64,000 nt of DNA. It comes from an uncultured Kiritimatiellota bacterium. Lineage in GTDB: Bacteria > Verrucomicrobiota > Kiritimatiellia > RFP12 > UBA1067. The notes below the pieces were generated by a model. The model did no database searches. It saw only the letters and a list, made by a program, of their open reading frames with translations, and was not told where the DNA came from. Location of the stretch: NCBI GenBank assembly GCA_934675625.1, contig CAKURH010000004.1:640-64639 (forward strand). Reading direction: 5' to 3'. Positions 27,809-43,883 of the stretch are shown piece by piece. Position numbers and translations under genes: made by a program. Numbering within the stretch: the first letter of the stretch is position 1; every line of letters starts with the position of its first letter.

Positions 27809-28222
27809 ATGACGACGGTTACGAAGACGGTGCGGTTTGATGCCGCGCACATCCTGACGAATCACCAGGGGCTCTGCAAGAACCTGCACGGGCACACGTA
27901 TCGCGTGGACGTGTCCGTCGCGCAGGAAGACGGCGCGGGCGGCGACATGGTCATCGACTTCAAGGACCTGAAGCGGATTGCGGCGGAGACGGTCTGTGAC
28001 CGCTTTGACCACGCATTCATCTACAACACGGAATCGGCGGGTGAGCGCGAGATCGCGGCGGTCGTCGAGCGACACGGCATGCGGACGGTCGCGCTGCCGT
28101 TCCGCTCCACGGCCGAGAACCTCGCGCAGATGTTCTTCGGCGAGCTCCGGGCGAAGATCCCCGGCCTTCAGTCCGTCAAGGTCTGGGAGACGGCCGACAG
28201 CTGCGCCGAGTATCGCGCATGA
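27809..28222 (+). CDS. queD: 6-carboxy-5,6,7,8-tetrahydropterin synthase
   Basis: ..VRFDAAHIL....C.NLHGHTY.V.V.. is the QueD/PTPS signature. Confidence 0.85.
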   Translation: MTTVTKTVRFDAAHILTNHQGLCKNLHGHTYRVDVSVAQEDGAGGDMVIDFKDLKRIAAETVCDRFDHAFIYNTESAGEREIAAVVERHGMRTVALPFRSTAENLAQMFFGELRAKIPGLQSVKVWETADSCAEYRA

Positions 28223-29373
28223 AACGCCATCTCCAGCTGTTCGTCGAGTTCTTCAAGATCTCCCTGTTCGTGATCGGCGGTGGCTATGCGATTCTCGCCG
28301 TCGCCGATTCGGTGTTCGCGAAGAGGAAATGGATTGAGGAGGGCGAGCTGCTGGACGAGCTGCCGGTCTTCCAGATGCTGCCGGGCATCATCGCGACGCA
28401 CACGGCCGTCTACGTCGGACGCAAGGTCGCGGGGGTTTCGGGCGCAGTCACGAGCGTCATTGCCGTTGCTTTGCCCTCGGTCGTCATCTTCACGGCCGTC
28501 GCGATGGGCTACGATGCCTTGCCGCTCGACAACCCGCATCTTCTGAGCGCGTTCGTCGGGCTTCGCAGCGCGCTGACGGGCATCATCGCCGCGACGCTCG
28601 TCCGCCTCTGGACGCGCGCGCCGAAGGACGTCTTCTTCTTTGTCGTGCTGGCGGCGGCGCTTGCCGCGCTCTTCGGCGGCGTGCCCGTCTGGATCGTGCT
28701 GCTCGCGGCGATGGCGGCCGGGCTCGCCTGTCCGCAGACGATGGGGACAGGCCCCGCCGTTCTGGGGCCAGACCCCAAAAATGCGGGGACAGGCTCCGAC
28801 GGAGACGGCACGAAGACGTTCCGTGCGGTGGCGTGGCTGCCGCTGCTGCTCTTTCTCAAGTACGGCGCGCTTTGCTTCGGTGGCGGTTTTGTGCTCGTGC
28901 CGATGTACATCGAGGATTTCGTGGGGCCGGCGGCGTCCTTCTTGCAGGTGCCCGCCGAGGAGTTCTCGAACCTGATGGCTCTCACGCAGATGACGCCGGG
29001 GCCGATCGGCGTCAACGGCGCGACGTACTTCGGCTTCCGCCTCGCGGGGATTCTGGGCGCGGCGCTCGCGTCCGCCGCGCTGTTGCTGCCGGGGTCGGTG
29101 CTCATGTACCTCGCCCTCGCGTCCATCGACCGGTTTCGGACGAACCGGGTCGTCTGCGGCATTCTGCGCGGCGCGAAGCCCGCGTCGCTCGCGCTCATGC
29201 TCGTCGCGCTCTGGGCGTTCCTCGAATTGAGCGTTTTCGCGGGCGGTGCGTTCTGCGGACTGTCGGCCGTCTTCGTGCTCGCCAGCCTCGTCGTGACGCT
29301 GAAGAAATGGATGAACCCCGTTTGGCTCATCGTCCTTCTGGCGTTTGTGGCGGTTCTGCTTCGTGCCGGCTGA
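28219..29373 (+). CDS. chrA: chromate-ion-transporter (CHR) family protein, two fused CHR domains
   Basis: ..FFKISLFVIGGGYAIL.. and a second ..GALCFGGGFVLVPMY.. are both present. The gene overlaps queD by ATGA. Confidence 0.75.
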   Translation: MKRHLQLFVEFFKISLFVIGGGYAILAVADSVFAKRKWIEEGELLDELPVFQMLPGIIATHTAVYVGRKVAGVSGAVTSVIAVALPSVVIFTAVAMGYDALPLDNPHLLSAFVGLRSALTGIIAATLVRLWTRAPKDVFFFVVLAAALAALFGGVPVWIVLLAAMAAGLACPQTMGTGPAVLGPDPKNAGTGSDGDGTKTFRAVAWLPLLLFLKYGALCFGGGFVLVPMYIEDFVGPAASFLQVPAEEFSNLMALTQMTPGPIGVNGATYFGFRLAGILGAALASAALLLPGSVLMYLALASIDRFRTNRVVCGILRGAKPASLALMLVALWAFLELSVFAGGAFCGLSAVFVLASLVVTLKKWMNPVWLIVLLAFVAVLLRAG

Positions 29374-29436
29374 CGATTGCGCAAAAAGTGATTTTATTTT
29401 GCTGAATCCGACCTTTCGGAACGGGTGCGGATTGTG

Positions 29437-29442
29437 TATAAT
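29437..29442 (+). promoter_or_regulatory. -10 hexamer TATAAT with a c.40-nt leader and AAGGAGA SD before ATG 29484
   Basis: The sequence reads TGTGTATAAT, and the SD lies at 29472-29478. Confidence 0.4.
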
Positions 29443-29483
29443 ACTTCCCATTTCGTTGGCAAAAGAAAAACAAGGAGAAAGAC

Positions 29484-30188
29484 ATGCTGAAGGAGAAGTT
29501 TGACTTGACGGGCAAGGTTGCCCTCGTGACCGGCTCGACGCGCGGCATCGGCAAGGCCATTGGCGATGCGTTCGAGGAATACGGCGCGAAGGTGATCCGC
29601 CACAACACGAAGGTCTGCGACCTGTCCGACCCGGCGGTGATCGACGCGTTCTTCGACCGGCTCGCGGCGGAGGGCGCGCTGCCGGACATCCTCGTCGCCA
29701 ACGCCTCGATCCAGGCGAAGATCCCGTGGACGGAGTTTCCGCTCGACGAGGCGCAGAAGGAGATGCAGGTCAACTTCTTCGCGACCCTGCGGATGTTCCA
29801 GCGGTGCTATCCGAAGATGAAGGCGCAGAAGTGGGGGCGGCTCATCGTGGTCGGCTCGGTGAACGAGCGGCGTCCGCATCCCGACATGTGCGTCTACGCG
29901 GCGACGAAGAGCGCGCAGGAGAACCTCGTGCGCGGCATCGGCCGCCAGGTCGCGCCGGAGGGCATCACGGTCAACAACCTCTGCCCCGGTGTGTTCAACA
30001 CCGATCGGAACCGTGACTGCCTCGCCGACCCCGTCTACGGGCCGCGCGTGACGGCGGCGATTCCGCTGCACGACTACGCCGTGCCGGAGGACGCCGCCGG
30101 GGCCGCGCTGCTCCTGGCGTCCGACGCGGGCCGCTACATCACCGGCACGACGCTGATGGTGGACGGCGGGCTGTCGATTCCGGGCTGA
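29484..30188 (+). CDS. SDR-family oxidoreductase
   Basis: The cofactor motif TGSTRGIGKAI and the catalytic YAATK are present. Confidence 0.85.
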   Translation: MLKEKFDLTGKVALVTGSTRGIGKAIGDAFEEYGAKVIRHNTKVCDLSDPAVIDAFFDRLAAEGALPDILVANASIQAKIPWTEFPLDEAQKEMQVNFFATLRMFQRCYPKMKAQKWGRLIVVGSVNERRPHPDMCVYAATKSAQENLVRGIGRQVAPEGITVNNLCPGVFNTDRNRDCLADPVYGPRVTAAIPLHDYAVPEDAAGAALLLASDAGRYITGTTLMVDGGLSIPG

Positions 30189-30406: not shown

Positions 30407-31009
30407 ATGAAAAGAACAGCCCTTGCGCTTGCCCTGATGTCGTCCGCCTGCCTCGTCGTTGACGTGAAGCCCTCCCATTCCGAAACGGTCAGGATCCGGG
30501 AGATGGTAAGGCACCTCGTCCCGTGGGACGCATGGCGATGGGACAGGACGGGCTTTCGCGGAACTTTCAAGGTCACGGTCTACAGGAAGACGAAGGAAGA
30601 CCTTGACCTCTTCTCGGACATAGACCTCAACTTGTCGCGTTCCGAGAGCGGGCACAAGCGGTTCGACGCCCTCATCTGCTCCGTCCTGCCTCTTGGGAAG
30701 GTCAAGGGGACAAGCCCAAAAAACCTCCTCCAAGACGGCTCTACCTTCTTCGTCTACGGGCGTTCACGGGAGAAGGTCAAGGACGTGGGCAAGCTCCTAG
30801 GAAAGGACAGCGGAGATTTTGTCGAGGCATACGTCACCGTCGAGAGGTGCGTCGGTCAGGAGCGGGACTACTGCCTCGACAGCCACAGGTGGAGCGGTGC
30901 GGGCGGGAAGGGAAGCCAGCCCGCCTACTGGCTCGTTGACGTGATGCCCGCCGCGAAGTTCGAGAGCGTCGTCAAGGTCGAGAGGGACGACTTCACGGCG
31001 TGGGAATGA
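30407..31009 (+). CDS. hypothetical lipoprotein
   Basis: MKRTALALALMSSAC forms a signal peptide plus lipobox-like Cys. An AAGGAG SD lies 10 nt upstream. I recognise no family. Confidence 0.5.
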   Translation: MKRTALALALMSSACLVVDVKPSHSETVRIREMVRHLVPWDAWRWDRTGFRGTFKVTVYRKTKEDLDLFSDIDLNLSRSESGHKRFDALICSVLPLGKVKGTSPKNLLQDGSTFFVYGRSREKVKDVGKLLGKDSGDFVEAYVTVERCVGQERDYCLDSHRWSGAGGKGSQPAYWLVDVMPAAKFESVVKVERDDFTAWE

Positions 31010-31020
31010 CCGAAAAGGGG

Positions 31021-31299
31021 TCAGAGGACGGACGCAAGCACCTTCGCGAGAAGCCCGCCAGCACCGACTAAAGAAGCAATAGCCGTCAATGAAATCACAA
31101 GGCACTTACCCAACAGCTTCAGGATTTCGGTTTTGAAGTCCTCGTGTTGCGCCTCTCCGTTGTGCTTTTCCAAGTTCGTAATCCTGTATGAGTGTTCCGC
31201 GAGCTGGTCGAGGACTGATTTCATCTGACCCGAAATCGTCCCCAGCTTCGCGCTGATGTCGGTAAAAATTTCAAGAATTTTTGTGTCCGTATTGCTCAT
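31021..31299 (-). CDS. XhlA-like small membrane protein (coiled-coil N-terminus, C-terminal TM helix)
   Basis: Internal ATG at 31299 gives 92 aa. The hydrophobic C-terminus is LVISLTAIASLVGAGGLLAKVLA. The gene overlaps the upstream gene by 4 nt. Confidence 0.45.
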   Translation of the reverse strand: MSNTDTKILEIFTDISAKLGTISGQMKSVLDQLAEHSYRITNLEKHNGEAQHEDFKTEILKLLGKCLVISLTAIASLVGAGGLLAKVLASVL

Positions 31300-31586
31300 T
31301 TTCGCTCTCCCGTTTCTATGCTTGTCCTCGTCGATTCCTTCGTCTCGACCATGCCCCAAAGATAGGAGTTCGTCGCGCAATGCTCCCTTGAAATCCTGAC
31401 CGTCTCGTTTGAGGTCGAAAAGGCTATCCCGCTCAAGTACGACACGATTTGGCACCCCATTACCTGCCCGTTGTAGGGAAGATACGCGCCGATGGTGGCT
31501 TTCGTCCCCTCCGTGTAAGTCGAGGTTTTCGTGACACAGCCGAAAACAAGAAGGAGACAGGCGGAAAGGACGAGACGGGATTTCAT
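31296..31586 (-). CDS. small lipoprotein (phage-associated)
   Basis: MKSRLVLSACLLLVFGC forms a lipobox; the product is 96 aa. Confidence 0.5.
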   Translation of the reverse strand: MKSRLVLSACLLLVFGCVTKTSTYTEGTKATIGAYLPYNGQVMGCQIVSYLSGIAFSTSNETVRISREHCATNSYLWGMVETKESTRTSIETGERK

Positions 31587-31590
31587 TTTT

Positions 31591-31833
31591 TTAGAACTCC
31601 TTTATCAGCTTCTCGACTTCCGAAATGCTCGTTTCAACTTCCTCGTCTTCTAGCTTTCCGTCAGACACGCGCGCGTTGATTCTCTTCAGGCAGTCGAGGA
31701 TTTTTGAGAGGCGTTCTATCCAAACGTTGATGGTCTTCGTGACAGTCGCAACGTTCTCGCGATTGTCTTCAAGAAGTTCGTTCACCGTCTTGATGATGTA
31801 TCTCTTCGCGATTCTGATGATTATTGATTTCAT
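31591..31833 (-). CDS. small helical hypothetical protein
   Basis: ATG at 31833 is preceded by GGAGAAAGGTGAAGG. The 80-aa product is charged and helical. Confidence 0.4.
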   Translation of the reverse strand: MKSIIIRIAKRYIIKTVNELLEDNRENVATVTKTINVWIERLSKILDCLKRINARVSDGKLEDEEVETSISEVEKLIKEF

Positions 31834-31838
31834 GTCCT

Positions 31839-32969
31839 TCACCTTTCTCCGGCTTCGATGTGATTCTTGAAGACCGACCATTTCGTGTCCGCGACATACC
31901 TGTCGTAAAGCTCCCTTGGAACGAGAATCCTGTAGTCCGCCGGGGCGTCCTCGAACTGATTCGTCCCCGACAGCGTGACGAGCGTCGAGAGGTCAGAATT
32001 CGTGCAGAGGTCGAGGACTTTCAGCCCCGGGCAGTATCGGAGAGCGTAGTTGCTGATTGCCGTGAGCGAGCCCGGCATGACGATTCGCTCGAGCGACGTG
32101 CAGCCCTTGAACGGGGTGTTTGACGAAGTGCCCTGGACTTTCTGAAGCCCGTTTGGAAGCAGGACCTCCCGCAGCTTCGGGCAGTTCATGAAGGTTTGGT
32201 GCCTGAGCGTTGTCATGGGGCTTTCGCTGATGTCAATCCGCTCGACCTCCGACATTTCGGCTAAGCCCGCGAGCGTCACGTCGGGGGCGGTGACCGAAAC
32301 GATTCCCGTCCCTTCAAGCGCGGCGTATGAGAGCTCCGTCACGCCGCCCAGGTTGACCTCCTTCGCGAACCACCCCGCTCCGACGAAAGCCCGCGTCCCG
32401 ATTTTCGCGACCGTGCCGGGAAGCCGCAGCTCGCCGCGATAGCCCGCAAGCGCATGGTTCCCGACCGTCGTCAGTTTCGTCTTCGAGAGGTCGACGAGCG
32501 TGACCCTCGGCAGGGTGTCCGCCGCGAAAAGCGGCGTCTCAGCCGTCGAGTAGACGCTTCCGTAATACTTCCCGACGCACGTCAGGCTGTCGTCGTCCGC
32601 AACCAAGGAGACGTCGCCCGCCCCGCCCGAAAGCGAGATGCCGTGAATGCCCATCACCCCGCGTTCGACGCTGAACTCCTGCGCGCCCGGATACCATTTC
32701 AGGTCGCGCTTCCAGGTTCCAGCGAGGTTCCTGTCCTGCTTGAACGAGGCGACGAAGTGCCTGTCCGCATAATACTCCTTCGTGACCTCCCTCTCCTGCT
32801 CGACCTCGACGGACAGCCCCGTGTCCTCCCCGCCCCCCATGATGCGGACGCCGCAGGGGTGAACCCGCTTGTAGAGGATGTGGAGATTGTAGTCGATTCG
32901 CTCGACCTCCTCCCCGTCGATTTGCAGGGACGACAGGCACGCCAAGTCAAGTCCGCTTTCGTCCATCAT
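31839..32969 (-). CDS. leucine-rich-repeat (BspA-type, LRR_5) protein, candidate receptor-binding protein
   Basis: Repeated F..C..L..I.LP..L..IG..AF units are present, for example FMNCPKLREVLLPNGLQKV and FKGCTSLERIVMPGSLTAISNYALRYCPGLKVLDL. A GAAGGAGG SD precedes the start. Confidence 0.7.
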   Translation of the reverse strand: MMDESGLDLACLSSLQIDGEEVERIDYNLHILYKRVHPCGVRIMGGGEDTGLSVEVEQEREVTKEYYADRHFVASFKQDRNLAGTWKRDLKWYPGAQEFSVERGVMGIHGISLSGGAGDVSLVADDDSLTCVGKYYGSVYSTAETPLFAADTLPRVTLVDLSKTKLTTVGNHALAGYRGELRLPGTVAKIGTRAFVGAGWFAKEVNLGGVTELSYAALEGTGIVSVTAPDVTLAGLAEMSEVERIDISESPMTTLRHQTFMNCPKLREVLLPNGLQKVQGTSSNTPFKGCTSLERIVMPGSLTAISNYALRYCPGLKVLDLCTNSDLSTLVTLSGTNQFEDAPADYRILVPRELYDRYVADTKWSVFKNHIEAGER

Positions 32970-33640
32970 GCCTCCTTCACGAGGAATTTCAGGACTTTCC
33001 GGGTTCCTGATATGCTGTAGGCGTAGACCTCCTTCTCGGCATATCCCTCCGGGAACGCCCCCCTTGCCTGAAATCTCCCGTCCGCCTCGTCCTTCGTGTA
33101 GGTTGAATCTCGCACGTCCTTCACCTCGTCCGCTATCGAATCCGCGTCAGGAATCGGAAACCACGAGCCGCCGACGAAAACGTTCAGGATGTCCGCCTCC
33201 GCGTATGCGTCGCCCTCGTTAGGTGATTCGGGCTTCTCGTCCAAGATGTGAAGGTAGTGGCTTGCCTTCCCCGCCGTTATTGTGCTGTCCCTGTCGAGGA
33301 CGATGAGGTCACCGACACCCAAGACATAGCCCTTCGTCTCGTTTCCGTTTTCGTCGATGCCGTCTGCTGTGACCGTGAAGCCGTTCGCAGTCTTCCCGAC
33401 CGAATCCGAGCCCGCAAGCGTCCCGACCCAACAACCGCCCGTGAGGACGCATTTCTTGCTCTCGATGGAATTGTCCGAAAAGGTCGCCGTGACGAAGACC
33501 TCCGTGATTTTCCACTGCCCTATCTTCTTCGGCACGTCGACGAGGCGAACCGAAATCGGGCTCCCCCTGAAAGTGACTATCGGCTGGAGCGGGATGTTGG
33601 CGTTCGCCGCGTGAACCTTTATGTCTCTTGTCCCTATCAT
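32966..33640 (-). CDS. tail-fibre-like hypothetical protein
   Basis: The motif STYTKDEADGRFQ resembles motifs common in phage tail-fibre proteins. The start/stop overlaps the LRR gene. Confidence 0.4.
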   Translation of the reverse strand: MIGTRDIKVHAANANIPLQPIVTFRGSPISVRLVDVPKKIGQWKITEVFVTATFSDNSIESKKCVLTGGCWVGTLAGSDSVGKTANGFTVTADGIDENGNETKGYVLGVGDLIVLDRDSTITAGKASHYLHILDEKPESPNEGDAYAEADILNVFVGGSWFPIPDADSIADEVKDVRDSTYTKDEADGRFQARGAFPEGYAEKEVYAYSISGTRKVLKFLVKEA

Positions 33641-33698
33641 TTTCTTCTCTTTCCGTTTCCGCCGCCACTAGGCGGCATGGGCTGAAAATGGGGCGGTG

Positions 33699-34697
33699 TT
33701 AAACGTCCGTCACCGCGTCGCGGAACTCGCACACGACTTCGGCTTTTCCAATGGAGATTGTCAGATGCGCATATTCCGCCGTTGCGGTCGCGGTATGGCT
33801 GAACGTCGATGGGTCCATGTTGAATGAGTGCCGCCGCTTCACTCCCTCGATGACGTTCTGCGCGGTCGCCTTGTCTATTCCGGGCGCGCCGAAGGTCGAC
33901 GCGCCGACCCGCACGGCGTATTTGTAGGTCTCGACGACATACAAGCTGTTGTCATTGACTTCCGTTGAAGAATACGCGACAGTGACGGGAACCCACGTGG
34001 CGGCGCGCTTCAGGATGAACGCCCCGTTATACTTCTGCGTGGGAAAGGGAATTGCGAGCGTGTCGAGCGCGCCAAGCTTCGCCGTGCGCGTAATACGCCC
34101 GTCCGTATTCCAAGCCCCGTTCGATTTCGACGCGCTTGCATACTCGCTGTAAATCGTGTGCGTCCCAACAATGGTTCCGATGTCGCTCTCGTCAACCGTC
34201 CCCTCCACTTCGACCGTCTCAGCTGTGACGTTTGCGGGATATCCGGCGTGCGCGATTGCGATGCCGAGCTCCCTCATGCCCCGCTGAAGTGCAAAAATCC
34301 TGTCCGCGCGAATGACCTTGCTGTCGTATTCGGGCACGGGAATCGCAAGCGACGTGCCCCTCTTTCCCTCGCGTTCCGCAACCTCCTCCAGCCAACTTCC
34401 AATTGGCGCGTCGGCGGAAAGCTCCGTCCAGTCCGTGAAGTCCGCCGTCCACGTGAAGCAGTTTCCTTCGCGGAGGTAGTCGGCAACCGCCTTCGTCATG
34501 TATTCGATAGGCTCGTCCAGCAGCCGCCGGTCGAACGTGCCGACCCTTGACGACGCGATGTCGCTTTCCCGCCCGGTGACGTGGTCGCGCTCCGCGACAG
34601 CCTCCTGGAGCCACGCGACGTCAACGCCCATCAGGCGGGTGTCGTTCCGCCGGAGCATGAGGTCTGCGGACAGGTCGATGCGGTCGAGGTCGCCCAT
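33699..34697 (-). CDS. hypothetical phage structural protein
   Basis: ATG at 34697 follows GGAGGAG by 7 nt and gives 332 aa. The longer ORF to 35252 runs antisense through rhs and is rejected. Confidence 0.5.
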   Translation of the reverse strand: MGDLDRIDLSADLMLRRNDTRLMGVDVAWLQEAVAERDHVTGRESDIASSRVGTFDRRLLDEPIEYMTKAVADYLREGNCFTWTADFTDWTELSADAPIGSWLEEVAEREGKRGTSLAIPVPEYDSKVIRADRIFALQRGMRELGIAIAHAGYPANVTAETVEVEGTVDESDIGTIVGTHTIYSEYASASKSNGAWNTDGRITRTAKLGALDTLAIPFPTQKYNGAFILKRAATWVPVTVAYSSTEVNDNSLYVVETYKYAVRVGASTFGAPGIDKATAQNVIEGVKRRHSFNMDPSTFSHTATATAEYAHLTISIGKAEVVCEFRDAVTDV

Positions 34698-34745
34698 GTA
34701 GCACTCCTCCGTGCGGCTCACGCGGGGATTCCTGCGACGCGCGTT

Positions 34746-37295
34746 CGCTACGACCCTCTCAGTCGGCTTGTGGCGCGGATGGACATCCTCGGCAACGAGA
34801 CGGCGATAGACTATTCGACGAATGGGCTGACGGCGACAGTCCTCAATCCGAACGGCTCGACGGAGATTACGTCGCGCGATGCCCGAGGCGAGGTCCGGTC
34901 TGTCACGGGCACGGCGGTCACGCCTGAATTCCGCACCTCCGGCGTGACAGCGGACGGCATCCGCTGGACGCGTGTCGTGCGCGGCGAGACGCCGGATGCG
35001 CCGCGCTTCACCCTTCGTTGCGAGAACATGCTCGGCCAGGTCGTCCGTGAGGAGCGGAGCGGCTTTCGGGGCACGGCTCTCGTGACGACCCACGCATACG
35101 ATGCCTACGGCCGCCTCGTTCGCACCGCCTCCGACGGCGAGCCGATGGTCGTTTACGCTTACGACGACTTCGGCGCACGCGTCGCCGAGACCCGCACGGT
35201 CGGGGGCGACTGTTCCGTTGATTCGCCCGAATGGCGCAAAAGCGAAACCCATGCCCGTTACTCACAGGTGGACGGCACCATTTGGCACGTCACGACCAAC
35301 GTCGACTTCTGCTCCGATGCGGCCATTGCGCCGCTCGTCGCCTCGCGGCGCATCCAGCTCACGGGACTCACGGCGGCGAATCCCGCGCGCCGCGTGAGCG
35401 TCGACGTGCGCGGCAACGTCACGGAGTTCTGGACGGAGTTCGCGGATGGCATTGTTACGACGAGGCACCGCGTTCCGGAGGTGACGAACGTCATCAGTGC
35501 CTGCGCACGGCTTGGCGTCCAGCTGGAGACCGTCTCGCTTTCGGCGGTCACAAACCGAATCGTCTACGATGCGCTCGGCCGAGCCTGTGCGGAGATTGAC
35601 GGACGCGGCAACGCGACGCGCACGGAATACGACGTCGCCGGGCGGCGTGCGGTGGCCTATGACGGCGCGGGGAACGCGACGCGCTACGCCTACGACCGGT
35701 TCGGGCGGCTCGCCGCCGTCACGAACGCGCTCGGACACGCCGTCGTCTACGAATACGACCTGCGCGGGCGCAAGACGTACGAGGGCGGCGCGACCTATCC
35801 CGTCCGCTATTCGTACGACGTCTTCGGCAACCGGATCTCGATGATGACCTACCGCGACGAATCAAAGGGGCTCGCTTCGGGCGACGTGACGCGCTGGCTC
35901 TACGACGAGGCGAGCGGCCTCATGACCAACAAGGTCTATGCGGACGGGCTGGGCCCCCGATACGAATACGACGCAAACGGCCGCCTCGTGAAGCGCACAT
36001 GGGCGCGCGGCATCGACACGTCCTACGCCTACGACGGATGGGGTGCGCTCACGAACACGGTCTATTCGGACGGCACATCGACCATCTCCACGCGGAACGA
36101 TGCGCTTGGGCGTCAGGTCGAGGCACATGACGCGGCGGGCGTGACGACGTTCGCCTACGACGCCTACGGCGCGAACACGAACGAGACGGTGATAGGCGTC
36201 GCGGGCACGAACGTCCTTGAACGCTTTACTGACGCCTACGGGCGCGATATCGGCTTCGCACTCAACGGCGAACGGCGTACGGTTCTCTCCCGCGACCCAG
36301 CGACAGGCCGTATCGCAGCAATGCGTGCGGCAGGCTGCGCAAACGATTTCGCATGGACGTATCATCCCGGATGCGACCTGAAGCATACGCTCCGCTACCC
36401 GAACGGTGCGCTCGTCACGTGGGAGTACGAGCCGCGACGCGACCTGATGACGCTCGTCTCGAACGACGTCTACTCGTCTTTCCGCTACACGTATGACGGG
36501 GCGGGCAAGCGCACCTCGAAGAACGACGAGCGCTATTCCTACAATGCGCGGGGCGAGCTGATCCTGGCGACGAACGTCGTCACGGGCACGGAGTTCGCCT
36601 ACCGCTACGATGACATCGGCAACCGGCTCTGGTCACGCGAGTTCGGCACGAACTGCACGTATGTCGCGAACGGGCTGAACCAGTACACGAACGTCGTGCG
36701 CGGCGGCGCTTCCGAGCGGTCGGCGTTCGACCTCGACGGCAACCAGACGAACGTCGTCACGGCCACGGGCGAGTGGGCGGTCGAGTACAACGGCGAGAAC
36801 CGGCCCGTGCGGTGGACGCGCACGTCGGACGGCGCGACGGTCCTGATGGCCTACGACCGCATGGGGCGGCGCGTCATGAAGAGCGACGAGACGTTCGTCT
36901 ACGACGGCTACCTGAACGTCAGTAAGACGGTCTGGGACCCGACCGAGCCCGTTGCGACGAGGCCGATAGTCTTTGACGAGACCGACTTGGTCTTTCTTTT
37001 CCATGATACGAACAAGAACGTCGTGGATGAGATTTCATTGTCAAGTGTTTACGGAAAGGAATATGCTCCATATGGAACTTTTTTAAAAGGGGAAAACATG
37101 TCGCCTTGGGGGTTTTCCTCGGAATATTTTGATCATTCATTGGCACTGATCTCGTACGGGTTTCGTGTATTGGATACTTTCTGCGGCAGATGGATGCAGC
37201 GAGATTCTTACGAGTTCGTCTTTGATTATCCCATTGTTGCGAATCAAGTTGTCAATAAAATTGATGTGCTGGGTTTATTTTTTTTATTACACTGA
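34746..37295 (+). pseudogene. rhs: rhs-family (YD-repeat) polymorphic-toxin gene, 5'-truncated; the core ends ..NKIDVLGL and stops 5 codons later
   Basis: Many YD repeats are present: RYDPLSRLV, YAYDAYGRLV, YAYDDFGARV, EYDVAGRR, YAYDRFGRLA, YEYDLRGRK, YSYDVFGNR, YEYDANGRLV, YAYDGWGAL, YTYDGAGKR and YRYDDIGNRL. The core-end motif is GRWMQRDS..IDVLGL. There is no N-terminal domain, start context or promoter. Rhs similarity begins at about 34720-34750. Confidence 0.8.
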
Positions 37296-37698
37296 ACATC
37301 CAGCTGGAACAATTCCAGGAAGTGGCTGGCCAAATCCTAATTGGACGGGTACAACAATTGTCACGAAAATGCCAGTACTTGATGTTTCTGTTCTTCATTG
37401 TATAGGCAAAAAGATAAAGTTTTATGCTGTCAGTCATGATATGCGAGTGGATACATATTATAGAGTTGAGCCTTCGTACAGATTGCGTCGTGATGAAGCA
37501 GACCATGTTTATTGTTATCGATGCTTCTACAGTGAATATGAAGCGGTTATCGCTCTGATTAAAGCCATTCCTTGTTCGTGCCCTAATGATGCAAATGCAT
37601 TGCGATTAAAGTATCTGGCTAGGCTTGTGTCGGCACAAATATCTTGCGATGCCTGTAATGCGAGATACGATCAACCGGGAGGTCCACATGGGCATTAA
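37273..37698 (+). CDS. Rhs C-terminal (toxin) domain ORF, lying in the +1 frame relative to the Rhs core
   Basis: The frame is open from before the T8 run (37278-37285) to TAA at 37698 and has no start codon of its own. Removing one T fuses ..DVLGLFF to YYTEHPAG... The domain is Cys-rich and AT-rich, and I recognise no family. Confidence 0.45.
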   Translation, partial: VYFFYYTEHPAGTIPGSGWPNPNWTGTTIVTKMPVLDVSVLHCIGKKIKFYAVSHDMRVDTYYRVEPSYRLRRDEADHVYCYRCFYSEYEAVIALIKAIPCSCPNDANALRLKYLARLVSAQISCDACNARYDQPGGPHGH

Positions 37699-38323
37699 GT
37701 CTTGCGTAGTGTCAATTATTCTAATTGCAACACTTGAATTAGATGCTGGATTATTTAATTCATTTGTCGTGACGAACTTTCATTGTCAAGCGGCGTTCAA
37801 GAGGACGGCTTGCGTCATGGCTCAAGACGCAAGGTCTGTCGTCATTGAGCCAGGCGGTCTTGATTCAGATGAACTGGCTCTTGCCAAATCCTTGGTGTTC
37901 TTGTCTCTGAGAAAGAGAAGTGTGCGTACAGAGGTTTCGCTTGACATAGATGAGCCTGTTCGACTTCGAGTCACGCCTTTTGAGGGCTGGACGGATTACG
38001 ATCTTTCCTTCTCGTATTTCGGTGCAAGAATTGATGCGTATGACGTGCAGTGCGTTCCGTTTGTCGTGACAAATCGACGCAATAACCATCGAATGAAGGT
38101 CGCGCTGTTCAAGTTCATGAAAGATGGACGTTTCGTGTTCGCCGAATATGCTAATCTGAACAATCTTCAAGTGTCACCGATTTTTGCGAGAAACTATACG
38201 ATGAGAACTTATTTGGCCTACCAGTCGGAGTTCCCGTGGCTTTCCGAAAAAGAAGTGGTGAGGCAGAAATCTTATATTGAATGGCATGGAAGCAAAGATC
38301 ATGAAGTGACATCGCAGATATGA
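37688..38323 (+). CDS. candidate immunity protein for the adjacent Rhs CT domain (N-terminal signal/anchor)
   Basis: GGAGG lies 6 nt upstream of the ATG, and the gene overlaps the toxin ORF end by 11 nt. The product is 211 aa. Its 5' half is duplicated at 42346-42591. Confidence 0.55.
   Translation: MGIKSCVVSIILIATLELDAGLFNSFVVTNFHCQAAFKRTACVMAQDARSVVIEPGGLDSDELALAKSLVFLSLRKRSVRTEVSLDIDEPVRLRVTPFEGWTDYDLSFSYFGARIDAYDVQCVPFVVTNRRNNHRMKVALFKFMKDGRFVFAEYANLNNLQVSPIFARNYTMRTYLAYQSEFPWLSEKEVVRQKSYIEWHGSKDHEVTSQI
37757..38002 (+). repeat. 246-bp direct repeat, copy 1 (inside the immunity gene)
   Basis: Aligned by eye to 42346-42591, it shows 10 substitutions and no indels. Confidence 0.9.
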
Positions 38324-38386
38324 ACGCATGCTTTTGCTTTGCCGGCAAACTCATAGCAAGTGGGGGTTCGTCGGTTGATAGGGTGC

Positions 38387-38965: not shown

Positions 38966-39972
38966 AAATGAAGCTGAACAAATTCATTTGGAGAGGAAGC
39001 CTTGATTTCATGGTGGGGCTTGTTGTTCCTGTTGCTATCGGCATTGGAGTGGCGATGCTGTTTCTTTTGCGGCACGACTCGCCCCAAGTCCCGACGGCGA
39101 TTCGGCATGACGTCCGCCCGATTCAGACGAAGGACGTCGCAGCCCCGTCCGCGTCCCGTGCGTCGCAACCCCACACGTCAGTCGAGCCGGAAGACGTCTC
39201 GGTGGCGGTTGCCGTCGTCTGCGGACATGAGGCCGCGACCGCCGACCGCTACGAGGCGCGCAATGCCGCGCTTCTGTCTCTCTCCCGTCGCCGAGACCTG
39301 GGCGTGGACGATGTGCAGACCTTGATGGCGTATCTCCGTACGACAGGCGGCGCGTTGCACGTCGAACGCGAGGCCGCGCTGAAGAACGATGTCCTCAATC
39401 TTTTGCGGAATCAGGCGACGCTCCCGGACGGGCTTGTCGACCTGCTCATGGAAATGTTCGCCTGCAATGAGCAACCGTCGGCCGTTCGCGACTACGCGCT
39501 CCAACACCTCGGTGCCTTGCAGAAGGACGACCTTGATGCGCAGCAGCGACGAAACTGCCGAGATGTTTTTGTTGCGGCGGCGAAGGACATCCGCGAGCCT
39601 TTCGCGGGAACGGCACTCTATTCGCTGGCCGCAATCGAACAGATGTCAAAGACACAAGAAGCCGAGTTGCGTCGCCTGACGGTTGCCGCCTGTGGCGCGG
39701 CGGCGAATCCCCTCGCCCGGATGTCGGCCCTGCAGCTGGCCGGCGAGCGCGGCTACCGCGAGGTCTTGCCCGTCGTGCGGAAGCTGCTGGACGGGTCGCG
39801 TCGTAATGCGGTGACGGATATGGTCGCGGTCGGGACGCTGGGACTGCTTGGCGGTCGCGAAGACCTTTCTCGGCTGGAGCGAGTGAAGACGTGCGGCGGG
39901 CAACGTCTGCGTCCGGCGGTCGAGGTGGCCATCCGAAGAATTGAAGAACGTCTGAAACAGGAGGTGAAATGA
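38962..39972 (+). CDS. membrane-anchored HEAT/armadillo-like repeat protein
   Basis: An N-terminal TM helix is followed by repeated helical units with ..R..A...L..L motifs (PBS-lyase HEAT-like). The GTGA overlap with the upstream gene gives a possible GTG start at 38962, with ATG at 38968 as the alternative. GC rises to the host level after about 39050. Confidence 0.5.
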   Translation: MKMKLNKFIWRGSLDFMVGLVVPVAIGIGVAMLFLLRHDSPQVPTAIRHDVRPIQTKDVAAPSASRASQPHTSVEPEDVSVAVAVVCGHEAATADRYEARNAALLSLSRRRDLGVDDVQTLMAYLRTTGGALHVEREAALKNDVLNLLRNQATLPDGLVDLLMEMFACNEQPSAVRDYALQHLGALQKDDLDAQQRRNCRDVFVAAAKDIREPFAGTALYSLAAIEQMSKTQEAELRRLTVAACGAAANPLARMSALQLAGERGYREVLPVVRKLLDGSRRNAVTDMVAVGTLGLLGGREDLSRLERVKTCGGQRLRPAVEVAIRRIEERLKQEVK

Positions 39973-41060
39973 TGAAACTTGGTTTGTCTGTCGGTTTTGC
40001 CGCATTCGTGTTTGCCGCAGCGGCAACGCCGCGTCTGGAAGTCCCGTCAACGGGCGTTGCGCTCGGCGAGGTCGCCGCCGGCGAATCCGCGTCTGGAACG
40101 GTGACGATTCGGAACGCAGGTGATTCACCTCTCGGTGTCTCGCGGGTCAAGGCGTGCTGTGGTGCGACGGCGGAGCTGTCGAGCCTGGATCTTGCGCCGG
40201 GCGCGTCTGCCGTGCTGACGGTCACGCTGAAGTCGCAGTTGCCGGGCGAGATCTCGAAGTCCGTCCATCTCTATTGCGACGACCCGAAGAGCCCGGTTGC
40301 CGTCATCCTGGTGACGGGCATGGCCCGCGAGCGGCGTACGCCCGGTGCCGTGTCGCGCTTCACGCTTCCAGCTGTCGTTCTGGCTGGCGTCGCTGACGGA
40401 TTCAACCCCTGTGCGTTCTCCATCGTGATTGCGCTCGCGGGCATCCTCGCCGTCGGCGGATGGGCGTTCTGCTTCGGCTCGTTCCTGACCTACGTGCTGA
40501 TGGGGCTAGGCCTGATGCGGGCGCTCAAGGCACTGGACGGACTTGAGACCGTGCGGAATGTCGTGATGACGGCACTGGCGGTGTCGCTGTTTGTCCTCGC
40601 GTTTCTCAGCGTCCGCGACGCCTTCCGCTACCGTCGTGCCAGGGTGCCGTCGGTCATCACGCTCCATCTGCCGGATCGCGTGAAGAAGCTGATCCGCGTG
40701 GTGGCCGAGACGAGCTGGAGCGGCCCGACGGTGGTTGTCGCGGGAGTCGGGTGCGGATTCCTCGTGACGTTGCTCGACTCGCTCTGCACGGGGCAGATCT
40801 ATGTGCCCGTCCTTGCGCTCATCTCACGCGAGCCGGAATCCCTGCGCGCGTTCGCGATGCTGATCGTCTACAATCTCGCGTTCATTGCGCCGCTTGTCGC
40901 CGTGTTCGTCCTTGCGGCGAAGGGGGCGGACGCCGCGCAGATGTCCAAGTGGTCGAAGCGCAACGTCTTCCCGTCCAAGATCGGGCTTGGTGTCATGTTC
41001 GCTGTTCTGGGCGTCCTTGTCCTGCCGTGGTTCGGTGCGTGGCTGGAGAGCCTGTTCTGA
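39969..41060 (+). CDS. DUF1573 domain fused to a CcdA/DsbD-like thiol-disulfide transmembrane domain
   Basis: The N-terminal VALGEVAAGESASGTVTIRNAGDSPLGVSRVKACCGAT fits the DUF1573 pattern. It is followed by GFNPCAF.. (the NPC motif of the DsbD_2 family) and about 6 TM segments. The gene shares an ATGA overlap with the HEAT gene. Confidence 0.6.
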   Translation: MMKLGLSVGFAAFVFAAAATPRLEVPSTGVALGEVAAGESASGTVTIRNAGDSPLGVSRVKACCGATAELSSLDLAPGASAVLTVTLKSQLPGEISKSVHLYCDDPKSPVAVILVTGMARERRTPGAVSRFTLPAVVLAGVADGFNPCAFSIVIALAGILAVGGWAFCFGSFLTYVLMGLGLMRALKALDGLETVRNVVMTALAVSLFVLAFLSVRDAFRYRRARVPSVITLHLPDRVKKLIRVVAETSWSGPTVVVAGVGCGFLVTLLDSLCTGQIYVPVLALISREPESLRAFAMLIVYNLAFIAPLVAVFVLAAKGADAAQMSKWSKRNVFPSKIGLGVMFAVLGVLVLPWFGAWLESLF

Positions 41061-41077: not shown

Positions 41078-41653
41078 ATGTCCTCGCATATGCGCCCCCT
41101 CCGCTTCCCCGTCCCTCCGTGCCTCCGTGTGAGACGACCACGACATGCCTCGACCGATCCCTCTGCCGAGGAACTGCGCGCGGTGCGCTACCGCTTTCAG
41201 GGGCGCGAGCGCTCGGCGGCGACGGGGCTCGTCAACTTCCGCATGAGGTGGTACGATCCGGCGACGGGCCGCTGGCTCTCCAAGGATCCTATCGGACTTA
41301 GCGGCGGACTGAATTTGTATGCGTTCTGCGGGGGAAATCCTATTTTGCGGATTGATCCGCAGGGCGAAAGTGCAGCCTCAGTAACAATCACCGTTGTAGC
41401 ATTGTCATATCTTATATATAAACTTATTAAACACGCAAAATCGGTAAATGATAAAATGAAGGGCAGGGATGTGGATGATTTGTGTGATGTTGTTAATGGG
41501 GCCTTAGATGTCTGTTCGGAAACTATGTCTGCGATAACATCCCCAACAGGCATGATGCCTGATGAAAAATCGCCTTTGATAGATCCTTTGATAAGTCCTG
41601 CGATAGAAAATATGTGGAACGACACGTTTGATCGCATTAGGCCCTTAGATTAA
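41078..41653 (+). CDS. orphan Rhs C-terminal fragment: last c.50 aa of the core plus a distinct CT domain containing a TM helix
   Basis: YRFQGRERSAATGLVNFRMRWYDPATGRWLSKDPIGLSGGLNLYAFCGGNPILRIDPQGE is the canonical Rhs core end. An AT-rich c.105-aa tail follows, including VTITVVALSYLIYKLI. Whether it is translated from ATG 41078 is uncertain. Confidence 0.6.
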   Translation: MSSHMRPLRFPVPPCLRVRRPRHASTDPSAEELRAVRYRFQGRERSAATGLVNFRMRWYDPATGRWLSKDPIGLSGGLNLYAFCGGNPILRIDPQGESAASVTITVVALSYLIYKLIKHAKSVNDKMKGRDVDDLCDVVNGALDVCSETMSAITSPTGMMPDEKSPLIDPLISPAIENMWNDTFDRIRPLD

Positions 41654-41654: not shown

Positions 41655-42074
41655 ATGAAGAGGATCTACTCTATCTGCGCGTTTCTTTTCCTGTTGGGCT
41701 CAGTGTCCGTTTACGCTGTCTTGGGCGTCCGCTTGGCTTTTTGTGCGGTGGTATTTGCGGATGCCAGTGAGTTGTCTCGTATGGCAGTGGAGGCCCTTGG
41801 TGACTTTGTTTTCTTTTGCTTATGCGCACGGATTCTTCTTTTGCTCGTGCGACAGTCTAAGATATCAAAGGCCTATGTATGGTGGTTCTTCCTTGCCGTT
41901 ACATGGATTGGTGTTATCCAGTTTTGTGCTTCTCAGTTAAGAGCCTTTCTGGAAATGTGGTTCTGCCTCTTCTTTATTTTATCACCTGTTTTTGTGGCTT
42001 TTGTGTTTTCGGTAAAGGATGTTGCCAAACGTAAAAAATTGACCCGAATCGAGGTGGATGATGCGAAATGCTGA
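41655..42074 (+). CDS. polytopic membrane protein, candidate immunity protein for the orphan CT domain
   Basis: The gene starts 1 nt after the orphan CT stop and encodes 139 aa with about 4 hydrophobic segments. It is AT-rich. Confidence 0.5.
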   Translation: MKRIYSICAFLFLLGSVSVYAVLGVRLAFCAVVFADASELSRMAVEALGDFVFFCLCARILLLLVRQSKISKAYVWWFFLAVTWIGVIQFCASQLRAFLEMWFCLFFILSPVFVAFVFSVKDVAKRKKLTRIEVDDAKC

Positions 42075-42276
42075 TTATTGCCGGACATTTAGATTGCTAA
42101 AAGCACAGGCATTGCGAGGTGTTGCCGAACTGATGTGGCTTGCGGGGACGGCGTATCGTGATGGGCATTTCCAGTGTGCCGGACAGAAGAAGGGTGTGCT
42201 CGTCCGTCGGAATGTCAGGTTGGCTTTGCATTGGCTCGAACGGGCGGCTGAAAAGCGTAGCGCTGGAGGAAAGGTG
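42058..42276 (+). other. Sel1/TPR-like repeat fragment (5' part of a chimeric ORF)
   Basis: ..AELMWLAGTAYRDG......RNVRLALHWLERAAEK resembles a single Sel1 repeat. It runs in frame into the truncated immunity copy. Confidence 0.3.
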
Positions 42277-42591
42277 ATGGACGTTAAGTGTTGTATCGCG
42301 ATGGTCGTCGCGGCCTGTGCATTAGGGCTGCATGCCGAGTTTTTCAATTCGTTTGTCGTGACGAACTTTCATTGTCAAGCGACGTTCAAGAGGACGGCTT
42401 GCGTCATGGCTCAAGACGCAAGGTCTGTCGTCATTGAGCCAGGCGGTCTTGATTCAGACGAACTGGCTCTTGCCAAATCCTTGGTGTTCTTGTCGCTGAG
42501 AAAGAGAAGTGAGCGTACCGAGGTTTCGGTTGACATAGAAGAGCCTGTTCGACTTCGCGTCACTCCTTTTGAGGGCTGGACGGATTACGAT
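42277..42591 (+). pseudogene. truncated second copy of the 37688..38323 immunity gene
   Basis: It has its own GGAGGAAAGG SD and an ATG at 42277. The signal region is divergent. The following 246 bp are 236/246 identical to copy 1, ending abruptly at the island/chromosome junction. Confidence 0.7.
42346..42591 (+). repeat. 246-bp direct repeat, copy 2
   Basis: See 37757-38002. Confidence 0.9.
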
Positions 42592-43738
42592 TTTCTGCGA
42601 CCGTGTTCTGCGCGCGCCACTGGCTCATGGTGAGGCCCGTCCGGGCCTTGAAGAGCCGCTTCAGGTAGATGGACGAGCCCCATCCGCAGAGGTTGGCGAT
42701 GGGCTCCATGATCTGGTTCGGCTTCTTCAGGAGCTCGAATACGCGCTCCATTCGGACGGAGATGATCTCTTCGACGATCGTCCGTCCCGTGGCGCTCTTG
42801 AAGCGGTTTTCGGCGGCGCGCTCGGAAAGGCCGAGGAACTTGACGACGTCCGTCGCGGTGAGCCCGTTGCAGGCCTCGCGGCGGATGTAGTCGAGCGCCT
42901 CTCCGATTGGGGTCTTTGAGGGCTTCAGCCGTCGTGAGGAGAGCCGCCGGGTGAGTCCGATCGGCGAATAGGTGAGCTTCTGCGGCTGGAGCTTGGGGTT
43001 GGCCAGGCGCTTCAGCAGGAGTTCCGCCGCGAGCCGTCCGCTGGTCCTGAAGCTCGGATGCACGCTGGTCAGCGACGGATGCGTGTTGTCGCAGAACGTC
43101 GGGTCGTCGTCCACGCCGACGACCCGGATGTCGCCCGGAACGGGTCGGCCGAGCTGGAGACAGGCGTTCAGCACGTCCGAGGCATAGGCGTCGTTGACGG
43201 CGAAGATGCCGCAGCCGACGGGAAGCCCGGCGAGGAACGGGCGCAGCCTTGCGGCGAATTCGGCCTTGTTCCCGAACGTGAGCGAATCCGTCAGGGCGAA
43301 GCACGCTTTTCCGTGCGCGGCGGCGCGGGCGGCGAAGCGGGCCTTGCGTCGGTGGCTCCACCCGACGTCTGGATTCCAGCCGACGAAGGCGAGCGAGGGA
43401 CAGTCTGCGAGTTCCTGGAAGGCGAGGTCGGCAATGGCTTCCGCATCGTTGAGCACGGTAAAGGCCGACGGGTCTTCCAGCGTCCAGTCGGGCGGGTCAA
43501 GATGGACGAGCGGGACACCGCGAAAGGTCTCCGAAGGAATCTCCCGGTTGCAGGCGCCTTCCAGGATGATGCCGACCGGCTGCCAGTAGGCGACGACATC
43601 CGCAAGCGGCTCGGTCAGGCGGACGAGCTCGACCGCCTCGATGCGCATCCCGGAACCGACGACGACTTCCTGCGCGCCCGCATACTGGTAGACGCGGGAA
43701 CGCGCATTGAGATCGGTTATGAAGAGGACGGTATCCAT
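42560..43738 (-). CDS. XylR-type regulator (periplasmic-binding-protein-like sugar sensor + AraC HTH)
   Basis: The PBP1/LacI-like N-terminal region shows ..GIFAVNDAYA..IRVVGVDDD... The C-terminal AraC HTH shows ..CGWGSSIYLKRLFKARTGLTMSQWR. The last c.10 codons and the stop lie inside repeat copy 2. Confidence 0.8.
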   Translation of the reverse strand: MDTVLFITDLNARSRVYQYAGAQEVVVGSGMRIEAVELVRLTEPLADVVAYWQPVGIILEGACNREIPSETFRGVPLVHLDPPDWTLEDPSAFTVLNDAEAIADLAFQELADCPSLAFVGWNPDVGWSHRRKARFAARAAAHGKACFALTDSLTFGNKAEFAARLRPFLAGLPVGCGIFAVNDAYASDVLNACLQLGRPVPGDIRVVGVDDDPTFCDNTHPSLTSVHPSFRTSGRLAAELLLKRLANPKLQPQKLTYSPIGLTRRLSSRRLKPSKTPIGEALDYIRREACNGLTATDVVKFLGLSERAAENRFKSATGRTIVEEIISVRMERVFELLKKPNQIMEPIANLCGWGSSIYLKRLFKARTGLTMSQWRAQNTVAENRNPSSPQKE

Positions 43739-43753
43739 TTCGACGTTGGGGGA

Positions 43754-43762
43754 ATAATACCA
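43754..43762 (-). promoter_or_regulatory. extended -10 element TGGTATTAT (minus strand), 15 nt upstream of ATG 43738
   Basis: The reverse complement of 43754-43762 reads TGGTATTAT. Confidence 0.4.
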
Positions 43763-43883
43763 TAATCGCGCTTCGGGCGCAAGCGGAAATGGTTAGTCGC
43801 GATGTGCGGTTTTGGTTAGGGGTGGGGTAGTCTCATTTGATAAACTACCTACATCGTTAAATCAGATTGTAAGGAGGCTCACG

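Follow-up and report, generated by a model that had tools for sequence, protein, structure and literature searches.

Orphan rhs-CT/immunity modules, known from Salmonella, E. coli and Serratia, combine a 5′-truncated core homologous to full-length rhs with a low-GC exchangeable tip that begins within the conserved core end, a toxin that follows the D.xGL motif and an immunity gene immediately downstream (PMC3967940, PMC3150448, PMC10539506). In canonical Rhs/TcC toxins, which undergo autoproteolytic release, YD repeats and an Rhs-associated core precede a toxin that starts right after the motif (PMC8636562, PMC8765631), the role of the DPxGL autocleavage motif being described in PMC8636562. 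Two further groups of systems concern genes whose downstream domain is reached from another frame. Transcriptional slippage rescues Citrobacter/Yersinia tssM (A11), Shigella mxiE (T9), Thermus dnaX (A9) and IS elements (PMC4256274, PMC1088944), and the A/T runs involved are usually 9 or more bases long, sometimes 8 (PMC1088944). Programmed +1 frameshifting is exemplified by prfB (CUU UGA C) and by hungry-codon shifts (reviewed in PMC5009743).

The locus described here lies in a 64-kb stretch of DNA (the window) from an uncultured gut Kiritimatiellia bacterium; its features are collected in Table 1. Like an orphan module, it comprises a 5′-truncated core, a low-GC tip that begins within the core end, a toxin domain after the D.xGL motif and an immunity-like gene directly downstream, and relatives show arrays in which a full-length rhs is followed by such fragments. 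It differs from the described modules in that no full-length rhs occurs upstream, or anywhere else in the 64-kb window, the fragment adjoining a divergent gene instead; in that the toxin is one T out of frame; and in its gut Kiritimatiellia host and undescribed toxin family. With canonical Rhs/TcC toxins it shares the YD repeats, the Rhs-associated core, toxin coding right after the motif and both Asp-containing motifs (..QRDS.. and ..IDVLGL). Unlike them, it lacks the delivery domain as well as a third to half of the shell at the N-terminus, and its toxin is not translated within the shell polypeptide.

Table 1. Features of the rhs locus and its surroundings (positions in the window)
Feature	Position	Strand	Remarks
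Divergent gene, 332 aa	33699–34697	−	No known family; called in L011–L015; start codon and rhs truncation point 12 nt apart
5′-truncated rhs core fragment	34709–37277	+	ORF called 34779–37295 (838 aa); homologous coding continues upstream of the ATG to 34709, then ends
Exchangeable low-GC (43%) cassette	36966–38374	+	Last 104 core codons, T8, toxin domain, immunity gene
D-V-L-G-L, end of Rhs-associated core	37263–37277	+	Corresponds to the DPxGL autocleavage motif; aligned with D.LGL in fused homologs
T8 homopolymer	37278–37285	+	Read in the sequence and in 18/18 independent contigs; probable +1 T insertion
Toxin domain, 139 codons	37279–37698	+	+1 frame; Rhs C-terminal family ending GGPHGH
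TGA stop of the rhs frame	37293–37295	+	Five codons past DVLGL; ends ORF 34581–37295
Coupling module GGAGGTCCACATGGGCATTAA	37678–37698	+	Encodes ..GGPHGH-stop; contains the next gene's Shine-Dalgarno (GGAGG, 37678–37682) and ATG; 11-nt overlap
Immunity-like gene, 211 aa	37688–38323	+	Hydrophobic N-terminus; from translation
Second short orphan rhs tip (..WYDPATGRWLSKDPIGLSGGLNLYAFCGGNPILRIDPQGE)	41090–41653	+	In-frame toxin of a different kind; three-frame translation; called in L011; syntenic with L016
Truncated immunity-gene paralog	42342–42595	+	95% identical to 37754–38007; self-BLAST and translations
Junction peptide of the restored core-toxin fusion, ..IDVLGLFFYYTEHPAGTIPGSGWPNPNWTGTTIVTK			

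From position 37260 the rhs frame reads ATT GAT GTG CTG GGT TTA TTT TTT TTA TTA CAC TGA, and proteins P0027–P0031 all terminate accordingly in ..DVLGLFFLLH. No stop interrupts the +1 frame between 37165 and a TAA at 37696–37698 (translation ..MCWVYFFYYTEHPAGTIPG..), and removal of one T from the run yields a continuous core-toxin fusion in the window sequence (..IDVLGLFFYYTEHPAG..). The preliminary description of this DNA had reported that the T8 run displaces the toxin domain by one frame from the Rhs core, that the rhs protein stops five codons after DVLGL, that the +1 frame runs into the next gene (ATG 37688) by 11 nt and that deleting one T restores the fusion; all of this holds, and toxin homologs that sit in frame directly after D.LGL support this anatomy. 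The run is the longest homopolymer of the window, the only others of at least seven bases being G7 at 11547 and T7 at 31586. Base composition predicts ~0.07 runs of T8 or longer per 64-kb window, and an open frame of 137 codons in a 40% GC stretch occurs in 1.1e-4 of shuffles (the other two frames contain 4 and 15 stops), so that both the run and the open frame exceed chance. The sequence after the run showed no stimulatory RNA structure (z −0.37), nor does the run coincide with a transcription terminator. Frameshifting in the −1 direction was considered, as U UUU UUA stands in phase, and discarded: the −1 frame closes after ~40 codons and holds no toxin.

HMMER searches retrieved 20 homologs of the toxin domain, every one at the extreme C-terminus of its protein and usually in frame after the Rhs D.LGL; 11 are fused in frame. 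Comparison with these homologs shows the +1 ORF to be a genuine predicted toxin domain whose usual state is an in-frame fusion. The domain in the window retains all invariant residues of the family, and its AF2 model is of high confidence (pLDDT 95.8, pTM 0.86). It has no match in Pfam, NCBIfam or PHROG, and a Foldseek comparison of the fold against PDB and BFVD returned nothing at E below 0.001; the family is undescribed. The putative immunity protein was likewise without a match in Pfam, NCBIfam and PHROGs, and shares 28% identity (E 1e-19) with the product of the gene directly after toxin homolog P0010 in contig L062. The window and contigs L060, L061 and L062 all show the coupling arrangement in their sequence, and the 11-nt overlap recurs in L069 and L070 by gene coordinates.

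The family also indicates what the junction may have looked like before the frame was lost. Homologs and the restored window show the same spacing after LGL (P0006, LGL-FMDVVEH-DPGE; P0010, LGL-FFKIDETH; restored window, LGL-FFYYTEH-PAG). The junction codons of in-frame relatives are GGA TTA TTT TTC AAG in L062 and GGA TTG TTC ATG in L061, and the homopolymer run is absent from both. From this alignment we infer an ancestral T7 junction (TTA TTT TTT TAT, L-F-F-Y), from which T8 would have arisen by a +1 T insertion. Unrelated lesions separate four further family members from the core, namely a TAA in L069 and in L070, a non-homopolymer frameshift in L068 and a TGA in L060; this last contig, which carries the closest toxin homolog (P0002), extends only 19 nt upstream, and its in-frame TGA is not fully trustworthy. 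A clustering of lesions near the junction (five family members) was considered as a meaningful pattern and set aside, because clustering at 50% identity conceals full-length Rhs proteins of the library within core-based clusters and thereby over-samples short ORFs. The toxin ORF of the window carries no second lesion and keeps both its invariant residues and its confident fold; the insertion would therefore be either recent or tolerated.

The core fragment matches RHS_repeat (2.8e-32, four stretches), YD_repeat (TIGR01643, 8e-26) and, by a marginal pass, Rhs_assc_core (TIGR03696, 32.9 bits where 32.5 is required, residues 762–833), a domain that characteristically closes with a (P)xxxxD.xGL autocleavage motif. 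DNA identity to related loci begins exactly at 34709 (92% to L016, 89% to L017), and the rhs ORFs of these two contigs continue 706 and 698 codons further upstream. Relative to 1675-aa relatives (L016), ~700 N-terminal residues are missing, and full-length relatives in general carry 690–1084 more. Judged by these alignments the rhs gene is 5′-truncated and does not encode a full shell that includes the N-terminal plug and delivery region. The T8 in addition sets the toxin in a different frame from the core. Given the truncation, even a restored frame would still yield no deliverable toxin. The divergent gene that begins next to the truncation point has no match in Pfam or PHROG. The 5′ truncation had not figured in the preliminary description.

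GC content drops from 0.65 to 0.40 at the cassette, and synteny with L016 is broken exactly between 36965 and 38375; these comparisons place the cassette boundaries at the positions given in Table 1. The cassette sequence is 100% identical in every contig found, including L065 and L066, despite a 5–7% difference in the adjoining core. It follows truncated fragments of 838, 440 and 215 aa, so that the cassette was met only in truncated orphan contexts, and the 440-aa and 215-aa versions are located inside arrays in other contigs. In a comparison of the kind that the preliminary description had proposed, ~50 related Kiritimatiellia rhs cassettes all have an in-frame tip (115–282 aa), and the four disrupted members of the toxin family carry unrelated lesions.

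T8 was present in 18/18 independent short-read gut-metagenome contigs examined, which derive from several cohorts. These contigs are Illumina assemblies produced by SPAdes and MEGAHIT, several at low coverage (1.7–5.6x), and 5 of the 18 were retrieved via the immunity protein, which introduces no bias toward any tract length. The identical 838-aa, T8-terminated product is recorded on 31 contigs and the identical 211-aa protein on 41. Tract-length variants numbered zero among the 18 contigs, and none appeared among the 31 + 41 contigs indexed by protein. A toxin-domain query of 5.8e9 proteins returned no fused (T7) core-toxin protein, the only match being the 144-aa ORF of the toxin frame itself. 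A junction pattern allowing 4–12 bases between the flanks had no match in GTDB genomes or JGI metagenomes and is hence silent on T7 and T9 alleles. T8 is real and uniform.

Among the four origins that the preliminary description had offered for the run, a real inactivating mutation is the best supported. We consider it probable that T8 is an ordinary fixed mutation of this kind in an orphan rhs cassette whose carrier is itself 5′-truncated and whose immunity gene has been kept. Replication slippage in the ancestral T7, within the opening codons of the toxin domain, would have left a fixed one-base insertion that uncouples an intact toxin domain from the Rhs core. The core, an orphan without ~700 N-terminal residues belonging to the shell and delivery region, would offer the toxin neither encapsulation nor delivery. 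With the toxin uncoupled and the core truncated, the locus would amount to a silent, decaying rhs-CT/immunity module. The immunity gene, which carries its own Shine-Dalgarno and ATG, is still intact, presumably since the cell continues to gain protection from it. What had been named as the marks of a plain pseudogene were in part observed directly, as both a uniform T8 and further disabling mutations in relatives were found; lack of toxin expression we infer.

Two observations weigh against this reading: the absence of a second lesion in the toxin ORF, noted above, and the site itself, which is mechanistically slippery (U8, with UUU UUA UUA in frame 0), so that it is plausible that slippage by RNA polymerase or the ribosome makes some fused product. 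A recoding rescue built on this property, in which polymerase slips to U7 or tRNA-Phe slips +1 from UUU to UUU with the rare UUA in the A site, giving a low and possibly regulated level of fusion, is unlikely. The window does share with rescued genes an A/T homopolymer just before a premature stop and a downstream domain in another frame, a run of 8 U lies at the lower edge of productive transcriptional slippage in some bacteria (PMC1088944), and a poly-A run rescues the T6SS gene tssM in Citrobacter (PMC4256274). Slippage sites are recognized by a sufficient run preserved among homologs, whereas the window run, borderline at only 8 bases, is conserved in no homolog and stands in a gene whose upstream part is a truncated remnant. 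As for the ribosome, a P-site UUU can re-pair with the +1 UUU and, as far as sequence context goes, UUU UUA sets a slippery P-site codon before a very rare A-site codon. The frame-0 codons past the run are UUA UUA, TTA makes up 0/2760 codons in GC-rich genes of the host, and the toxin ORF is fully intact. Against this, five in-frame TTA codons occur within the cassette itself, the frame-0 stop comes only three codons past the shift site rather than at it, no clear SD-like stimulator is seen upstream and, as noted above, no structure downstream. The shift and the run recur in no related cassette or toxin-family member, these being in frame (the ~50 related cassettes and the 11 fused homologs) or broken elsewhere by stops, which speaks against the programmed +1 frameshifting suggested earlier. 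Any fused product would moreover be without shell and delivery region, the core being 5′-truncated.

Slipped-strand phase variation, also among the earlier suggestions, would make the tract a contingency switch in the DNA, with T8 as the OFF and T7 as the ON state of the toxin. The position of the window's longest homopolymer exactly at the core/toxin junction, where a single slip restores the frame, fits such a switch. The absence of any length variant, whether in the 18 contigs or in the protein-indexed sets of 31 and 41, makes it decidedly improbable, as do the shortness of T8 for a contingency tract and the finding that all contexts are truncated orphans.

The insertion also aligns the toxin with an ATG at 37264 (MCWVYFFYY.., 144 aa), so that an internal transcript could express it on its own and, with the immunity gene, form a toxin-antitoxin-like pair. 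Gene predictors call this 144-aa ORF on 9 contigs, internal promoters and starts of a Salmonella orphan rhs yield a functional toxin/antitoxin (PMC7043789), and a promoter-like site lies at 37038–37067. Stand-alone expression is nevertheless very unlikely: promoter-like matches are no more numerous than chance, the ATG at 37264 has no Shine-Dalgarno, in contrast to the GGAGG of the immunity gene, and the hydrophobic, signal-like N-termini of the family's immunity proteins, together with a Cys-rich toxin, suggest an envelope target and not a cytoplasmic toxin-antitoxin pair. Least credible of all, and in effect refuted, is a homopolymer sequencing or assembly artefact that conceals a true T7 and an intact fusion. 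Homopolymers are indeed error-prone on some platforms and several contigs have coverage of only 1.7–5.6x, yet 18 independent SPAdes and MEGAHIT assemblies from different cohorts all read T8 and no public assembly contains a fused protein.

A fixed inactivating frameshift is a textbook route to a silent polymorphic-toxin cassette with a surviving immunity gene, and in that respect the locus adds little; some value lies in a documented case from uncultured gut Kiritimatiellia, in which rhs arrays are abundant and unstudied. More useful are the undescribed family of Rhs C-terminal toxins, with a confidently predicted fold unmatched in PDB or BFVD, and the conserved C-terminal GGPHGH-stop module, in which the same codons also provide the Shine-Dalgarno and ATG for the immunity gene. 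A more speculative and, in our estimate, unlikely prospect is that T8 keeps a silent spare toxin one slip from use: if recombination placed the cassette in a full-length rhs, conversion of T8 to T7 in the DNA, or slippage of RNA polymerase or the ribosome at UUU-UUA, would produce an active, encapsulated toxin. Should bypass of T8 or switching at it prove true, this would be the first recoded, homopolymer-gated or phase-variable Rhs toxin.

Downstream of the cassette, the window contains two further elements of this kind (Table 1). One is the second orphan rhs tip; the other, the truncated immunity-gene paralog, is what remains of a second cassette copy.

The window sequence bears out every detail of the preliminary description of this junction: the run of eight T (T8), the rhs-frame stop, the open +1 frame and its 11-nt overlap with the next gene. 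From 37260 it reads ATT GAT GTG CTG GGT TTA TTT TTT TTA TTA CAC TGA. T8 is the longest homopolymer of the 64-kb window, for which base composition predicts ~0.07 such runs. The 137-codon open frame lies in a 40% GC stretch, where its length is reached in 1.1e-4 of shuffles; the remaining two frames are interrupted by 4 and 15 stops.

Features of the junction, its surroundings and related loci (asterisk, stop codon)
Feature	Sequence	Position	Strand	Remarks
Divergent gene	window	33699..34697	-	start codon 12 nt from 34709
rhs-frame ORF	window	34581..37295		ends ..NKIDVLGLFFLLH*
+1 frame	window	open from 37165 to TAA 37696-37698		reads ..MCWVYFFYYTEHPAGTIPGSGW..
T8 homopolymer	window	37278-37285		eight T
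Downstream (immunity-like) ORF	window	ATG 37688		GGAGG ahead of ATG; 11-nt overlap with +1 ORF
GGPHGH* coupling module	window; L060; L061; L062	37678-37698; 417-442; 1622-1642; 6898-6918
Core lesion	L060			TGA six codons ahead of GL; flank of 19 nt only
Core lesion	L068	1340-1420		frameshift ~25 codons upstream, not in homopolymer; toxin ORF intact
Core lesion	L069	100-115		TAA inside N.P..*.DALGL, ATG directly after (TAAATG); toxin ORF intact
Core lesion	L070	140-150		in-frame TAA in EERGG*TLYAF; toxin ORF intact

In a full HMMER scan covering 1.84 billion representative proteins, 20 homologs of the toxin domain emerged (P0002-P0021), all with the domain at the extreme C-terminus and ending in GGPHGH or a near variant. 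The domain follows the Rhs core end in frame in 11 of them, as in ..RINDVLGL-FMDVVEH-DPGE (P0006) and ..HNDFLGL-FFKIDETH (P0010); with its frame restored, the window junction would read ..KIDVLGL-FFYYTEH-PAG. The family is marked by an invariant E..H, the C-terminal GGPHGH and conserved Cys residues, and the window copy retains all invariant residues (P13, E73, H76, G134, G135, H137-H139). AlphaFold (AF2) models the domain as a five-stranded sheet with a long helical hairpin (pLDDT 95.8), with zero matches in Pfam, NCBIfam or PHROG and zero fold matches in PDB or BFVD. The +1 ORF (37279-37698) represents a previously undescribed family of Rhs C-terminal toxins. The junction DNA of two relatives, GGA TTA TTT TTC AAG (locus L062) and GGA TTG TTC ATG (locus L061), points to an ancestral window junction of TTA TTT TTT TAT with a T7 tract, T8 being a predicted +1 insertion.

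The sole match to the toxin query among 5.8 billion proteins was the 144-aa +1 ORF itself (P0001), whose look-up led to ten independent gut-metagenome contigs (Hadza, MERR22, k141 and Logan sets) that match the window at 99.8-100% identity and carry T8 in 10/10 cases. Because this look-up can return T8 alleles only, it was repeated via the immunity protein, yielding five further contigs (<=20.6 kb, 100% identical, standing for 23 contigs read), again with T8 in 5/5 and the rhs product called at 838 aa. Records of the exact 838-aa product, with its ..LGLFFLLH end, cover 31 contigs; those of the immunity protein cover 41. A T7 allele would yield a fused core-toxin protein sharing every word with the toxin query, and none was present among the 5.8 billion proteins. 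The sequencing or assembly error considered earlier is therefore ruled out as the origin of T8. Pattern scans allowing 4-12 bases between the flanks found zero copies of the cassette in GTDB genomes and JGI metagenomes. Five contigs (L011-L015), sampled from separate human cohorts (Hadza, MERR22 and k141 sets), are 100.000% identical to window 27688-48323 over <=20.6 kb; the gut Kiritimatiellia lineage seems highly clonal.

In a search of GTDB genomes, the rhs core falls among gut and rumen Kiritimatiellia MAGs. Full-length relatives possess 690-1084 extra N-terminal residues. DNA identity to L016, from the closest species (92%), and to L017 (89%) begins abruptly at window 34709; Rhs-like coding sequence (..HAGIPATRVRYDPLSRLVAR) continues 5' of ATG 34779, the called start, before breaking off. 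The 64-kb window contains no other rhs. The window gene, which has the Rhs repeats and core domain and lacks both the full shell and a toxin in frame, is a remnant without its N-terminal part.

Six minus-strand genes (80-375 aa; 31021-34697) adjoin the truncation point. One encodes a BspA-type LRR_5 protein, the others have no Pfam or PHROG function, and at 31000-32000 GC drops to about 50%. The 5' part of rhs may have been lost through insertion of this block. The syntenic rhs of L016 (5883-10910) is full length (1675 aa), with a Cys-rich tip giving weak phospholipase-A2-like matches (PF09056, 6.8e-5, below cut-off); similar tips occur in L025, L032 and L045. Four contigs with Kiritimatiellia-type rhs genes (L017, L029, L044 and L058; 48-77% protein identity to the window rhs, and 89-90% at the DNA level in L017 and L044) have been assigned to MAGs named Oscillospiraceae, Paludibacteraceae, Clostridium sp. 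CAG:138 and Bacillota, probably through binning errors.

High identity to L016 stops at 36965, past a conserved WDPTEPVATRP, and returns at 38375, bracketing a 1.4-kb cassette whose GC is 43%, against 64% for the genome. The cluster of the 838-aa protein includes products of 440 and 215 aa that likewise end ..LGLFFLLH. The contigs encoding them (L065-L067) contain the same cassette from 36966 on, T8 included, 100% identical in L065 and L066 and with one mismatch, within the immunity gene, in L067. These copies sit behind rhs fragments with differing truncation points, inside an orphan array and preceded by a HEAT-like gene; in L065 and L066, the core next to the cassette has diverged by 5-7%. 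The frameshifted cassette has thus changed loci, and a truncated core precedes it in every case. Its sequence shows no variation that would reveal selection on the +1 ORF. Leu codon TTA is used five times in the cassette's 452 codons and 0/2760 times in GC-rich host-type genes (e.g. 27809-30188, 38968-41060, 42560-46613).

In about 50 related rhs cassettes of the loci compared, a tip of 115-282 aa follows the motif in frame. Four toxin-family members have an ORF starting at the junction, each cut from its core by a different ordinary lesion (table). Meaningful clustering of lesions near the junction was rejected: full-length Rhs proteins are grouped by core in the representative library, which therefore over-samples short ORFs.

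The evidence best supports replication slippage of T7 to T8, which would leave the toxin silent. The cassette would already have been, or soon after have become, part of a non-deliverable orphan fragment. The immunity gene still has a ribosome-binding site and a start codon of its own. Among the origins proposed earlier, real inactivation fits best with the uniform T8, the truncated core and the absence of the shift from relatives. Stand-alone translation of the toxin from ATG 37264 is possible and has precedent in Salmonella orphan rhs (PMC7043789), but this ATG is without a Shine-Dalgarno sequence.

The U8 site is nevertheless slippery in ways that could allow recoding by transcriptional slippage or a +1 ribosomal shift. 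UUU UUA UUA places a codon unused by host genes (0/2760) in the A site, an arrangement typical of +1 shifts. U8 is also about the shortest run at which transcriptional slippage is productive (PMC1088944; compare tssM, PMC4256274). However, relatives do not share the shift, which counts against the programmed +1 frameshifting suggested in the preliminary description; neither a stimulatory structure nor a clear SD-like element upstream was found at the site, and the fused product would be undeliverable because the shell is truncated. For slipped-strand phase variation, also suggested there, zero length variants were observed at T8. That T8 marks a homopolymer-gated or recoded spare toxin is rated very improbable. 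For -1 frameshifting, U UUU UUA is in phase, but that frame closes after about 40 codons.

The 211-aa downstream protein is 28% identical to the protein next after P0010 in L062, which supports a cognate toxin/immunity pairing with the window toxin domain. The hydrophobic, signal-like N-termini of the family's immunity partners suggest an envelope target. The conserved end ..GGPHGH* is encoded by GGAGGNCCNCATGGNCATTAA, bases that double as the Shine-Dalgarno sequence and ATG of the gene that follows; in L062, this module recurs at the end of the immunity gene, where it opens the gene after it. Translational coupling, in addition to protein function, may thus account for the conservation of GGPHGH*.

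The window locus resembles the orphan rhs-CT/immunity modules described in enterobacteria (PMC3967940, PMC3150448), from which it differs in its additional inactivating frameshift, its uncultured gut Kiritimatiellia host and its undescribed toxin family. At 41090-41653 lies another orphan rhs tip, very short and joined in frame to a toxin of a different kind, and further on a truncated immunity-gene paralog (95% identical; 42342-42595) is fused into ORF 42058..42633; both are traces of an older array arrangement. At the corresponding place, L016 has an rhs fragment that begins at the breakpoint (window 36016) shared by L065 and L066.
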